From positions 128,001 to 192,000 of the forward strand of contig JAHPZH010000004.1 in the NCBI GenBank assembly GCA_019058315.1: a stretch of 64,000 nucleotides of DNA, in the 5' to 3' direction. Origin of the DNA: Candidatus Helarchaeota archaeon (GTDB lineage Archaea; Asgardarchaeota; Lokiarchaeia; Helarchaeales; RDOG01). Shown here one piece after another: positions 25,864-34,490 of the stretch. The notes under the pieces were generated by a model. It saw nothing but the letters and a program-made list of their open reading frames with translations, did no database searches and was not told where the DNA came from. How positions within the stretch are numbered: position 1 is the stretch's first letter; each line of letters begins with the position of its first letter. The translations under genes were made by a program, and so were the position numbers.

Positions 25864-26265
25864 ATGGATATTAGTCCGAAATTAAAAAATTCAATCAAGG
25901 TCTTCGCTTCTGAGGCAGGTCGTTTCAAACTTGAAGATCTAGCTAATATAGTAGGAGTAGATAAAAAGAATATAGTAGATATTTTAAATAGTTTAGTTAT
26001 CATTGGAGAACTAGAGGGCAGTTTTGCCAATAAAAATTCAGAATTTGTTACTAATAACAAATTAAAACAAGAAGTACAAATGATTCTAGAGAATCCTAAT
26101 CTAATAGAAACTTATAACTCAGACAATGTAAAAGAAATTGATAATGAAAGAGAAAAAAATAATGTAATTTCGACAATAACCGAAATAAAAAAATGCCCAA
26201 AATGTAATATTTCCGTAGAAATTGGCGGGAAATTCTGCCCTCAGTGTGGAGAACCAATAGGATAA
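25864..26265 (+). CDS. PCI-like winged-helix protein with C-terminal Zn ribbon
   Basis: GRFKLEDLANIVGVD..ILNSL...GELEGSF; CPKC..CPQCG. Confidence 0.75.
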   Translation: MDISPKLKNSIKVFASEAGRFKLEDLANIVGVDKKNIVDILNSLVIIGELEGSFANKNSEFVTNNKLKQEVQMILENPNLIETYNSDNVKEIDNEREKNNVISTITEIKKCPKCNISVEIGGKFCPQCGEPIG

Positions 26266-26272
26266 GGATATT

Positions 26273-27529
26273 ATGGATCCAATCTTTGATCATAGTGTTT
26301 CTGATAATATTATTGATGTAGAACACCTAAGTGTTAAATATGGAAAGAAAATAGCAGTTGATGATGTTACTTTTAATCTTAAGAGGGGTGAAATATTGGG
26401 GATATTTGGGAGGAGTGGTGCTGGAAAATCTACAATTTTAAAATGTTTAACTTCCCAATTAAAACCAAATGAAGGTTCAATACTAATTAATGGTATAAAT
26501 GTTATTAAAGAAAAGAAAAAATTAATCAGTTCCATAGGGTATATACCTCAATTGGAATCCGAAAGTCTTTATGAGGATTTAAGTCCTATTTTAAACGCTT
26601 TTTATTTTGGAAGAATGCATAATTTAGAGGATGACGAAATTATTTCACGAGCTAAAAAAATTTTTAATATTCTTGGATTTTCCGAGGAACTCTATAATAA
26701 AAATGTAAAATATCTATCGGGAGGAGAAAAAAAGCGAGTTTCGATTGCTGTTGGGATGATCCACAACCCTGAAATCCTAATTCTTGATGAACCTACGACA
26801 GGTTTAGACGCACATTTAAAATTTGAAGTTCTAAATTATTTGAAAGAGCTAAATCAAAAATTAAATATCAGTCTCGTTTTAGTCACCCACGACCTTGAAA
26901 CAGCCTCAATCTGTGACTATATTGTTATTATACATGGTGGTAAAGTCACAGATTTTGGGAAAGTTTCTGATTTAATAGAATCCCTACCGAGCAAAGGAAA
27001 TTTTCTAAGAGTATCAATTAAAGGTCTAAATGAGGAAAAAATAGCTGCAATTGGTAGCATTTCAGGAGTCGAATATTTTTTTAGAACCGGGATAGATGAA
27101 GTTGAACTCTTTCTAGAGGATTTAGATACTCAAGGTTCAAATCTTCTCAATCAATTATACGAAATGGGCGATATTAATTATATTAATTCGGAAATGGCAA
27201 ATTTTTCTCATTATTTTCTAATTAAAGTTGGTGTTTTATTAAACCCAGAAGCAGTTAAAATACCAGAAAATTGTCCAATTTGCGGGACTGTTTTACCGGC
27301 AGGCATTCGTGATATACTTCGCAAAGGTAAAGATTCCATCTGCTTAATTTGTAATCAAAAAATTGAAGCCCCAAAACAAGCTGAGGTAGAAATTCCAGAA
27401 TTTTGTGAATGTGGCTTAAAAATTCCAGAGAATGTTACTTATTTATTAAAAAGAGGAATGCCAGCTCATTGTCCATATTGTGGTATAAAAATAAGATTAC
27501 CTACAGAGGATGAAGAAGAGGAATTATAG
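26273..27529 (+). CDS. ABC ATPase with C-terminal duplicated Zn ribbons
   Basis: GRSGAGKST, LSGGEKKR, ILDEPT, VTHD; tail CPICG..CLIC and CECG..CPYCG. Confidence 0.93.
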   Translation: MDPIFDHSVSDNIIDVEHLSVKYGKKIAVDDVTFNLKRGEILGIFGRSGAGKSTILKCLTSQLKPNEGSILINGINVIKEKKKLISSIGYIPQLESESLYEDLSPILNAFYFGRMHNLEDDEIISRAKKIFNILGFSEELYNKNVKYLSGGEKKRVSIAVGMIHNPEILILDEPTTGLDAHLKFEVLNYLKELNQKLNISLVLVTHDLETASICDYIVIIHGGKVTDFGKVSDLIESLPSKGNFLRVSIKGLNEEKIAAIGSISGVEYFFRTGIDEVELFLEDLDTQGSNLLNQLYEMGDINYINSEMANFSHYFLIKVGVLLNPEAVKIPENCPICGTVLPAGIRDILRKGKDSICLICNQKIEAPKQAEVEIPEFCECGLKIPENVTYLLKRGMPAHCPYCGIKIRLPTEDEEEEL

Positions 27530-32540: not shown

Positions 32541-32609
32541 TCTTAATCAACTCATTTCTTAATAAAAAATATATTGTGAAAATACCACTATTAAAGTGTT
32601 GATTCGAAT

Positions 32610-34490
32610 ATGAAAAAAAGAATTTTTAAGATTAATCAAATTGCAAAAACTTTGGGGGTTGAACCTCAAAAGATTGCGAATATCCTAAGGGATATTGTTG
32701 TTAGTGGAGAAGGTTATGGATTTTTAGACGAATTTGATATGACATTTTATCAATTCACTAATATTGAATATCAAAATTTAATAACTAAATTCAATAATTC
32801 AAAGTTTACATTAGCTGAAGGAATTGAAATTGTTTTAAAACTAATTAAAGATTTTAAAGTAGACATAGATACCTTAAAGCGAATTTTATTATTTTTTATC
32901 GACAATCAGCAAATAAAAGGTATTTTTAATAATAAAACAACTGAATTTATTTCACTTAATTTTTTATACCAGAACATTCTTCGTTCACTATTTAATATGG
33001 GAAAAATCAGTCCAAAGGAATTGGCAGATGAATATAAAGTTCCAGAAGACACTATCCGAGAAGTTATTATCGATCTTCAAAGTAGCAATAAAATAAAAGG
33101 AATTTACATTAATGAAGGTAAAGATTATATAATTTACGAGACCTTAAAGAATGAAATACTTAAATTAATCGATCAAGAATTTGGAATGACAATCTCCTTA
33201 ATTTCTTCGCAGTTAAATGTCTCTGAGGAAGTAATTTCAAAAACAATTGATGATATGTTATTTAATGAATTAATATTTATACAAACTACACCAGTTGGAA
33301 ATGAAATTCAGTACATTACACATAGAAAAATTAGTGAGGAAATTCTAGCTGCTTTAAAAATGAATGATCGAAAAAACCTCGTTGAAATTGCTACTAGATT
33401 CAATATTCCCTTAGATAAAGCTAAAGAGATTCTCTATGACCTTATAGCTCAAGGTCGCATAGTAGGTTATATTGATGATAGAAATAATGAATTTATTCAA
33501 CAATATAAATTAGTCGTATCTCCATTAGAATCCTCTGCACCTCTCAATACTATTTTGCTTGTTGATAATGTTATGGTGAAAACAAAATCTAAGGTAATAA
33601 TAGAAAACATTTCTTTTTACTTACAAGAAAAAAAGATTTTAGGTATAGTCGGACCATCAGGAACTGGAAAATCAACATTTCTCAAAGCAATAATCGGCCA
33701 GTTGCCTTTAGCAAATGGAAAAATTACGATTGCAGGTTATAATACTAAAGATATGGGAAGCATCAGTAAAATTATGGGATATGTTCCTCAAGATTTAAGC
33801 ACAATCTATCCAAATTTTTCAATATTAAAAAATATGGAGCACTTCGGGAAACAATATGATTTAAATCTTAAAGAAATCACGAAAAGAGGAAAAAAAATCT
33901 TAAAAGAATTAAAAATCAGAGACTTAGCTGATGAGTTAGTAAAAAACTTAAGTGGAGGAGAAAAACGCAGAGCCTCTATAGCAATAAGTATAGTCCATTA
34001 TCCAAAAATCTTATTTTTAGATGAACCCACAAGTGGATTAGATCCTGTTCTAAGAAAAGAGTTTTGGAAAACTCTTATCAAACTCAATGAAAATTATAAT
34101 ATGACTCTAGTGGTTGTTACACATTATCCGGATGAATTACAATTCGTATCAAAAGCTGTTCTATTTGCAAAAAAGGAAGGATCTGGAAAAATCGTTGCAG
34201 TTGGTACTCCTAAAGAATTAATTTCATCATTACCTGGTGGAGGTAGAGTAATTTTAATTGAATTAAAACAGCCAATTAAGGATAGTTTAAAAATCTTAAA
34301 ACAGATTACAAATATTGATGCAATCCTTGAAGAAAGGAAAAATGAAAAATTTAGAATATTTACTGATCAACCAATGAAAGAAGTAGTAAACTTAATTGTA
34401 AATAATTTAAAATTATCAAGTATCAGAAATATTAGTCAAGTTGAAGCAAATATGGTTGATTTTTTTAGGTTAAAAGTTGAAAACCAATAA
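32610..34490 (+). CDS. ABC ATPase fused to ~5 tandem PCI-like winged-helix repeats
   Basis: GPSGTGKST, LSGGEKRR, FLDEPT, VTHY in the C-terminal half; repeated I..LA..f.v..e.i..il.dli..g.i.G.id units in the first ~300 aa. Confidence 0.9.
   Translation: MKKRIFKINQIAKTLGVEPQKIANILRDIVVSGEGYGFLDEFDMTFYQFTNIEYQNLITKFNNSKFTLAEGIEIVLKLIKDFKVDIDTLKRILLFFIDNQQIKGIFNNKTTEFISLNFLYQNILRSLFNMGKISPKELADEYKVPEDTIREVIIDLQSSNKIKGIYINEGKDYIIYETLKNEILKLIDQEFGMTISLISSQLNVSEEVISKTIDDMLFNELIFIQTTPVGNEIQYITHRKISEEILAALKMNDRKNLVEIATRFNIPLDKAKEILYDLIAQGRIVGYIDDRNNEFIQQYKLVVSPLESSAPLNTILLVDNVMVKTKSKVIIENISFYLQEKKILGIVGPSGTGKSTFLKAIIGQLPLANGKITIAGYNTKDMGSISKIMGYVPQDLSTIYPNFSILKNMEHFGKQYDLNLKEITKRGKKILKELKIRDLADELVKNLSGGEKRRASIAISIVHYPKILFLDEPTSGLDPVLRKEFWKTLIKLNENYNMTLVVVTHYPDELQFVSKAVLFAKKEGSGKIVAVGTPKELISSLPGGGRVILIELKQPIKDSLKILKQITNIDAILEERKNEKFRIFTDQPMKEVVNLIVNNLKLSSIRNISQVEANMVDFFRLKVENQ

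Follow-up and report, generated by a model that had tools for sequence, protein, structure and literature searches.

In a 64,000-nt stretch of a Candidatus Helarchaeota contig (JAHPZH010000004.1; hereafter the window, on the whole of which all positions are counted), five adjacent genes at 25864-34490 encode the Helarchaeales variant of an ATP-binding cassette (ABC) system of the ABC-2 type found across Asgard archaea. Its core consists of a permease of the ABC-2 family, two ABC ATPases that are paralogs, and a membrane protein that joins a subtilase-family (S8) pseudoprotease to a GIFT domain. We propose, with moderate confidence, that the five genes specify one membrane machine similar to GldAFG and NosDFY, in which ATP hydrolysis would be coupled to a non-catalytic ectodomain like that of site-1 protease (S1P), and which would carry a lineage-specific cytoplasmic docking scaffold built of winged-helix (wH) units.

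The gene set and its spread across Asgard archaea

An earlier reading of this DNA from its letters alone, hereafter the sequence-only reading, had described five tightly packed genes in three orientation blocks and had named the domains of all five products. The open reading frames (ORFs) agree with it to the nucleotide, with gaps of 7, 1, 9 and 69 bp, and Pfam and NCBIfam matches, structural models and Cys motifs bear out the domains. On the forward strand, P0001 (25864..26265; 133 aa) holds a UFL1/PCI-type wH at residues ~5-70, followed by a linker and a CxxC...CxxC zinc ribbon at residues 111-128, and P0002 (26273..27529; 418 aa) is a short ABC ATPase in which the nucleotide-binding domain (NBD) and a DrrA-type C-domain occupy residues 1-320 and the tail (residues ~330-410; nt ~27260-27502) carries two repeated zinc ribbons. 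On the reverse strand lie the genes for P0003 (27531..31367; 1278 aa), the predicted membrane-anchored pseudoprotease-GIFT ectoprotein, and P0004 (31377..32540; 387 aa), an ABC-2 permease with an extracytoplasmic loop of ~150 aa between transmembrane segments (TM) 1 and 2. P0005 (32610..34490, forward strand; 626 aa) is a long ABC ATPase, composed of five tandem UFL1/DDRGK1/PCI-type wH units at residues 1-300 (nt 32610-33509) and an NBD with C-domain, matching ABC_tran, at residues 313-626. The 69 bp between the divergent permease and long-ATPase genes (32541..32609) read as A+T-rich and presumably hold both promoters.

The same genes recur together in other genomes. They are clustered, with two CoA-transferase genes inserted, on a JGI contig (L013; 67% identity), and all five are present together on an ENA contig (L014/L017; 40% identity), whereas the Lokiarchaeales relatives carry in a row a short ATPase, two permeases, a long ATPase and a pseudoprotease of 1620-1777 aa. 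Of 400 genomes of the phylum, 122 contained the middle region of P0003, which is absent from active paralogs; 20 loci were then sampled from other Asgard families among those genomes, and in 18 of them genes for a permease, for a long ATPase (540-620 aa) and for a short ATPase (~300-360 aa) flanked that of the pseudoprotease. Orthologs of P0004 likewise adjoin the pseudoprotease gene across Asgard lineages. Because the gene set recurs in many genomes, its co-location is more than chance, and the core is a co-conserved, phylum-wide Asgard unit, among the most widely kept multi-gene surface modules seen in these archaea. The sequence-only reading had named neighbourhood conservation in Asgard genomes beforehand as a test of its proposal, and this expectation was borne out; by the same result, the core is not unique to the locus. 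In the open-access literature we found no description of the core system, nothing joining Asgard archaea with GldG, and nothing relevant on an Asgard subtilisin-type pseudoprotease with an ABC transporter.

Both ATPases look like working enzymes. P0002 matched Pfam ABC_tran at E 2.7e-31, and the best NCBIfam matches of the pair were DrrA and GldA, at scores below the model cut-offs: 181 bits for P0002 against the drrA subfamily model, and 160.7 bits (P0002) and 107.5 bits (P0005) against the GldA equivalog TIGR03522, with a cut-off of 402.6. Walker A and B, Q-loop, signature, D-loop and H-loop are all intact in both NBDs, which are 32% identical to each other, and across all lineages compared the short and long ATPases are each nearer to their own type than to the other. 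P0002 and P0005 thus appear to be two ancient, catalytically competent-looking paralogs; their separation across lineages, together with full motifs in both NBDs, points to an ancient heterodimer, and the two permease genes of some lineages point to a fully heteromeric transporter there. Of the heterodimeric ATPase pair in the sequence-only reading, the pair stood, with ancient paralogy and intact motifs added, and dimer formation itself we infer. P0004 scored above cut-off with ABC2_membrane_3 (PF12698; 52.7 bits, cut-off 31.6) and ABC2_membrane_2 (PF12679; 42.4 bits, cut-off 27.2), and its Pfam matches were to ABC-2 families only, with none to FtsX or MacB_PCD. A Type VII (MacB/FtsX) mechanotransmission transporter was rejected on this ground, as P0004 gave no Pfam match to that permease fold.

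The pseudoprotease-GIFT ectoprotein

The S8 domain of P0003 (residues 74-370; nt 30258-31148) matched Peptidase_S8 at E 2e-48, and four GIFT-clan models exceeded their curated Pfam cut-offs, namely MBTPS1_4th (PF23090; 35.9 bits, cut-off 27), ABC_transp_aux, DUF4350 and IFT52_GIFT, the GIFT domain lying at residues ~906-1119 (nt 28011-28652). Aligned with subtilisin BPN', P0003 retains Asp85 and His129, and has Ala307 for the catalytic Ser and Asp227 for the oxyanion Asn. With triad Ser and oxyanion Asn both lost, the subtilase is predicted to be dead, and here the sequence-only reading, which had proposed a dead subtilase with a GIFT domain, was right on both counts.

The mean column identity among 35 family members is 26%, and every one of them has Asp at the oxyanion position, in the motif GD[DE]G; the catalytic Ser position is occupied by Ala, Gly, Thr, Phe, Leu, Asp or Lys. 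GNxG and GTSM are retained by unlinked S8-GIFT paralogs in the same genomes. In a tree of S8-GIFT proteins rooted with the active paralogs, the dead clade is monophyletic (support 100) and P0003 groups with its counterparts from L013, L017 and L018 (support 100). The invariant Asp amid such divergence, the motifs kept by active paralogs and the single dead clade together mark the family, as far as sequence can tell, as a selected pseudoenzyme.

A different account would have S8 still act as a protease through a non-canonical nucleophile, the ABC part exporting or activating its substrates. It could draw on the retained Asp85 and His129, on the Ser or Thr that immediately precedes the lost Ser in most family members, and on the few unlinked relatives in which Ser is retained (L019, L020 and P0012). 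Yet the oxyanion Asn is replaced in every member, several ABC-linked lineages have Arg, Glu, Thr, Ser or Pro for the catalytic His, and no substitute nucleophile is conserved, so that we hold a live protease to be extremely improbable. Helarchaeales relatives also encode intact S8-GIFT membrane proteins of 1211-1269 aa (L029:6592-10365(-), with paralogs in L030-L033) that are unlinked to ABC genes, and the L029 protein has a zinc ribbon at its C-terminal end. These active proteins are better candidates for functional S1P analogues than the dead family.

Hydropathy places a hydrophobic segment, which may be an anchor or a signal peptide, at residues 9-30 of P0003 and a TM at residues 1239-1266, followed by a short basic tail. 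The protein has 66 N-x-S/T sequons, where shuffles that keep its composition gave 20 ± 4, a 3.3-fold enrichment, and the other four locus proteins, cytoplasmic or membrane, have 1 to 8 each. From the hydrophobic ends and the sequon excess, P0003 is predicted to be a membrane-anchored ectoprotein, probably extracellular and heavily glycosylated.

Residues 45-1240, modelled with AlphaFold2 from a 35-row alignment (pLDDT 83.5, pTM 0.83), run from S8 through ~500 residues of beta domains (residues ~400-905), a GIFT domain of alpha/beta type and an Ig-like domain (residues ~1120-1217) to the TM. Foldseek ranked human S1P first (9CSD, E 5e-25; 8UW8, E 6e-24), and these two entries represent the sole type of solved structure that aligned over both S8 and GIFT: by VIA alignment, model residues 16..1073 matched 191..873 of 8UW8 over 577 residues with Z 38, as against ~266 residues for plain subtilisins. 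The GIFT part alone found IFT52 (E 5.6e-4) and the S1P GIFT subdomain (residues 630-777; E 1.9e-3) by phmmer. By sequence, S8 is nearer to the archaeal Tk-SP and to subtilisins than to S1P; we therefore claim an architecture shared with S1P and not membership of its family. The N-terminal hydrophobic segment and S8 are 44 aa apart, too close for a prodomain. In most orthologs a further 90-140 residues lie at this place, which is the position occupied by subtilase propeptides, and the window protein and its closest relatives (1276-1282 aa) are without that segment.

The glycan-related features of P0003 bear on a plainer possibility, namely that the ABC-2 unit, fitted with a docking scaffold, is an exporter, its product a lipid, lipid-linked glycan or surface polymer, and that P0003 only receives or holds the product, with no conformational coupling. 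ABC-2 systems of the DrrA/Wzm type are typically exporters, and DrrA and GldA are the best NCBIfam matches here; the GIFT domain occurs in OST48, P0003 carries its 66 sequons, and an STT3/AglB gene (1623 aa) lies 11 kb away. The S1P study links GIFT only to 'oligosaccharyltransferase pathways' (PMC11231238). Nothing points to a cargo, however, and a plain exporter leaves unexplained both the invariant Asp in a conserved dead protease cleft and the elaborate cytoplasmic modules; we consider it unlikely.

The winged-helix scaffold and its distribution

The N-terminus of P0005 scored above the Pfam cut-offs of E3_UFM1_ligase (PF09743; 31.2 bits, cut-off 23.2), PCI (PF01399; 23.3 bits, cut-off 22) and HTH_11 (28.4 bits, cut-off 25), and its wH units also gave sub-threshold matches to MarR, TrmB and DeoR. 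An AlphaFold2 model of P0005:1-312 (pLDDT 88.5) contains five tandem wH, the number given by the sequence-only reading, of which the first is without helix 1. Its best PDB match was a UFL1-DDRGK1 chimera (8B9X; E 3e-11, TMq 0.51, TMt 0.61) and the next was UFL1 on the 60S ribosome. P0001 gave zinc-ribbon matches in Pfam and a sub-threshold match to an E3_UFM1_ligase-type wH, and its family profile aligned with the P0005 N-terminal profile at wH3 (hhalign; probability 96%, E 4.8e-9). The earlier proposal that the same wH stands at both ends of the locus, fused to one ATPase and separate beside the other in a Rosetta-stone pattern, therefore holds at the level of homology. We considered a pairing like that of UFBP1 with UFL1, in which P0001 would complete the partial first wH of P0005; by its own sequence, P0001 looks like a complete wH. 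In L013 (52% identity) and in L017 (44% identity, with the zinc ribbon missing), the ortholog of P0001 stands directly upstream of the short ATPase. The zinc ribbons of the P0002 tail rest on the Cys motifs CPIC...CLIC and CxC...CPYC, with weak Pfam support, and the motifs are conserved in the 61%-identical ortholog and in L017.

The wH array is the N-terminal extension of the long ATPase only in the window clade (P0016-P0019; L013, L017 and L018). All other lineages compared have at this place an unrelated conserved N-domain of ~215-270 aa, hereafter the canonical N-domain, and hhalign between the two gave a probability of 0.15%. The canonical N-domain (~220 aa, with the motif EE.YFSG..F..A..W...R, in the long ATPases of L022-L056 in alignment A5) has as its only PDB profile match a weak one to the TrmB C-domain (E 0.004), and it gave no usable Atlas match and no family assignment. 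It was not found in the window genome, which is 94% complete and yielded no system but that of the wH type; G001, from the same family as the window genome, has it, as do G003, G005 and G006. Each of the three f3 genomes carries a canonical ABC set, loosely clustered, on a different contig from its second pseudoprotease, and G005 and G006 have a complete wH-type cluster besides, whereas G003 has the canonical set only. Since both types coexist in G005 and G006, the wH type is a paralogous system that arose within Helarchaeales. Short-ATPase orthologs in other Asgard lineages are ~326-345 aa long and without the tail, and among the loci compared, the small wH gene and the zinc-ribbon tail were found only alongside the wH-type system. 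The five-wH swap on the long ATPase, the two zinc ribbons on the short ATPase and the small wH gene are thus specific to this clade. The sequence-only reading had treated the wH and zinc modules as parts of the system as such; they proved to be add-ons of a small Helarchaeales clade, the array displacing an unrelated domain.

An exhaustive profile search with the P0005 array against 1.84 billion representatives returned 100 matches in all, in which fusions of wH to ABC form only two 50%-identity clusters. The next-best match was to a Helarchaeota PCI-domain protein of 803 aa whose N-terminus carries the array. Several others are single-pass Asgard surface proteins with the array as a cytoplasmic tail, including P0031 (L064:244-4623), in which a GIFT-clan DUF4350 ectodomain with 21 sequons and a TM precede it, and P0023 (L065:1763-6899), which has a BNR propeller ectodomain. 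What is new in the window is this clade-specific UFL1-type swap, its narrow distribution and its link to receptor tails.

The array also matches proteins of ~790 aa over full length in 36 of 41 relatives. These exceed the Pfam cut-offs of DDRGK, E3_UFM1_ligase and PCI, and in Lokiarchaeales they begin with Cys-rich zinc ribbons. Three Lokiarchaeia examples (L057:1429-3795(-), L058:1087-3450(-) and L059:1408-3801(+)), two of which have N-terminal Cys-rich zinc ribbons and a weakly VPS28-like C-terminus, are probably Asgard relatives of UFL1 and DDRGK1. The human proteins serve as wH scaffolds of a PCI-like kind, and one of the two is anchored in a membrane (PMC9627666). An Asgard origin has been reported for UFL1 and DDRGK1, with a role independent of UFM1, and UFM1 and UFC1 are reported to be exclusive to eukaryotes (PMC10183829). 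The locus and the receptor-type array proteins give that UFM1-independent function a concrete setting, that of a scaffold for docking at the cytoplasmic side of surface machines.

The array could instead be the output of an outside-in sensor, in which ligand binding by the dead S8/GIFT receptor alters the ATPase cycle, much as in Bce-type flux sensing, and the signal leaves through wH units that bind DNA or a regulator; signalling would then be the main task of the unit. The DNA-binding helix-turn-helix models among the matches (HTH_11 above its cut-off; MarR, TrmB and DeoR below theirs) would fit, as would the arrays on the cytoplasmic side of single-pass, receptor-like proteins; pseudoprotease receptors of the CspC type are known, and P0003 matches the NCBIfam CspC model (NF040808) at 42.6 bits, where the cut-off is 675. 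However, the best fold and family matches are to scaffold-type PCI/UFL1 wH rather than to DNA-binding regulators, both NBDs keep full catalytic motifs, and in most Asgard lineages the core has another N-domain that is not of the wH kind, so that wH signalling cannot be the ancestral function. Such a sensor seems to us distinctly unlikely.

The proposed machine and its known counterparts

In the coupled machine that we favour, P0004 would be the membrane domain, P0002 and P0005 a heterodimeric ATPase, and P0003 a GldG-type auxiliary subunit, probably membrane-anchored at both ends. The S8 cleft with its invariant Asp, unable to hydrolyse, is proposed to serve as a binding site. ATP binding and hydrolysis would move the P0003 ectodomain as NosF2Y2 moves NosD; in NosDF2Y2, the ATP cycle of the ABC engine changes what the large outer partner binds (PMC13685413). 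Alternatively, the coupling could consist in handing an exported lipid- or glycan-linked cargo to the ectodomain. In the window clade, a five-wH scaffold, copied from an Asgard UFL1/DDRGK1-like protein, would have displaced the ancestral N-domain of the long ATPase, and the short ATPase would have gained two zinc ribbons and, as a gene of its own, a wH(+Zn) partner; the wH and zinc modules would jointly form a membrane-side platform that docks cytoplasmic partners. The physical complex, its stoichiometry, the direction of coupling and the ligand are thus deduced from anatomy and gene linkage. The preference of the sequence-only reading for a signalling or mechanotransmission device over an exporter is likewise conjecture.

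Several points weigh against this machine. Gene linkage is the one line of support for a physical complex, and the locus consists of three transcription blocks rather than a single operon. Family f20 and the second f3 paralog keep the pseudoprotease apart from ABC genes; the pseudoprotease can therefore persist without the linkage. The ABC_transp_aux match of P0003 (PF09822; 35.2 bits, cut-off 34.7) barely passes and covers 63 of 288 profile positions (20-82). The listed sequencing runs are of sediment metagenome DNA only, we know of no solved GldF-GldG structure that could act as a modelling template, although no search was made for one, and the reading identifies no cargo, ligand or wH partners. 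A complex prediction for P0004 with P0003:900-1278 scored 0.17 against a mark of 0.32, which counts neither for nor against binding.

The system joins three domain types that eukaryotes use within their endoplasmic reticulum (ER) and Golgi, namely the architecture of S1P, the GIFT domain seen in OST48 and IFT52 and, in one clade, UFL1/DDRGK1 wH units. By the domain swap, the N-domain position of the long ATPase stands out as a regulatory or adaptor port of the whole family. A bolder extension would make the machine a prokaryotic forerunner of an ER-type membrane station, with an outer S1P/OST48-like GIFT part for glycoproteins, an inner UFL1/DDRGK1-type platform docking ribosomes or a quality-control factor, and ATP hydrolysis linking the two sides. 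We regard this as a long shot; if true, parts of eukaryotic UFL1-DDRGK1 ribosome docking and of S1P would descend from modules already cooperating at the Asgard membrane.

Two neighbouring genes were rejected as parts of the system. A Metallophos gene upstream of P0001 is common only to the window and L013. A 366-aa ORF at 34909-36009 (-) adjoins the wH-ATPase gene in four of four clade members, and gave no match in Pfam, the PDB or the Atlas; it was excluded because it is single-copy in 41 of 41 Lokiarchaeia relatives searched (35-48% identity) and located elsewhere in their genomes, and it is a universal gene of the class. The STT3/AglB oligosaccharyltransferase (45738-50609 (+)) extends ~1000 residues beyond the AglB core. 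At 21774-22340 (+), an RNA polymerase Rpb5/RpoH C-domain stands behind an Mrr/NA-iREase1-like restriction-endonuclease-fold domain, a two-domain layout that recalls eukaryotic Rpb5.

Five known systems frame the comparison. GldA/GldF/GldG of Bacteroidota and the generic ABC_transp_aux 'ABC-type uncharacterized transport system' share with the Asgard locus an ABC-2 permease, a DrrA/GldA-like ATPase and clustered genes, and the large, probably extracytoplasmic GIFT protein, hydrophobic at both ends, would be a further likeness. The Asgard locus differs in having two paralogous ATPases and not one, an auxiliary protein to which an S8 pseudoprotease at the N-terminus and ~500 aa of beta domains are added, wH and zinc modules on the cytoplasmic side, and an archaeal host with no gliding context. 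NosDFY (NosDF2Y2), which assembles nitrous oxide reductase and in which NosY is an ABC-2-type permease, offers a working model of an ABC engine driving a large outer partner, although NosD is a beta-helix and not S8/GIFT, there is one ATPase type, and the system is bacterial and delivers copper. The germinant receptors CspC and CspA of Clostridioides difficile are S8-family proteins that have lost the catalytic triad and act by binding, but they are soluble spore proteins without a GIFT domain, TM or ABC partner.

S1P (MBTPS1; 8UW8 and 9CSD) is ordered as S8, a P-like domain, GIFT and TM, and its GIFT subdomain supports the oxyanion Asn (PMC11231238). P0003 has the same order of S8, beta subdomain, GIFT, C-terminal TM and short tail, but it is without the catalytic Ser, the oxyanion Asn and room for a prodomain, its middle is far larger, and it is partnered with an ABC transporter. 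The UFL1/UFBP1 (DDRGK1) scaffold of the UFM1 E3 ligase (8B9X, 8OHD and 8QFC) has in common with P0005 a tandem array of PCI-like wH held at a membrane; the N-terminus of UFL1 begins with a partial wH (PMC9627666), as does the first unit of P0005, whereas the P0005 array is fused to an ABC ATPase and is without the C-terminal region of UFL1.

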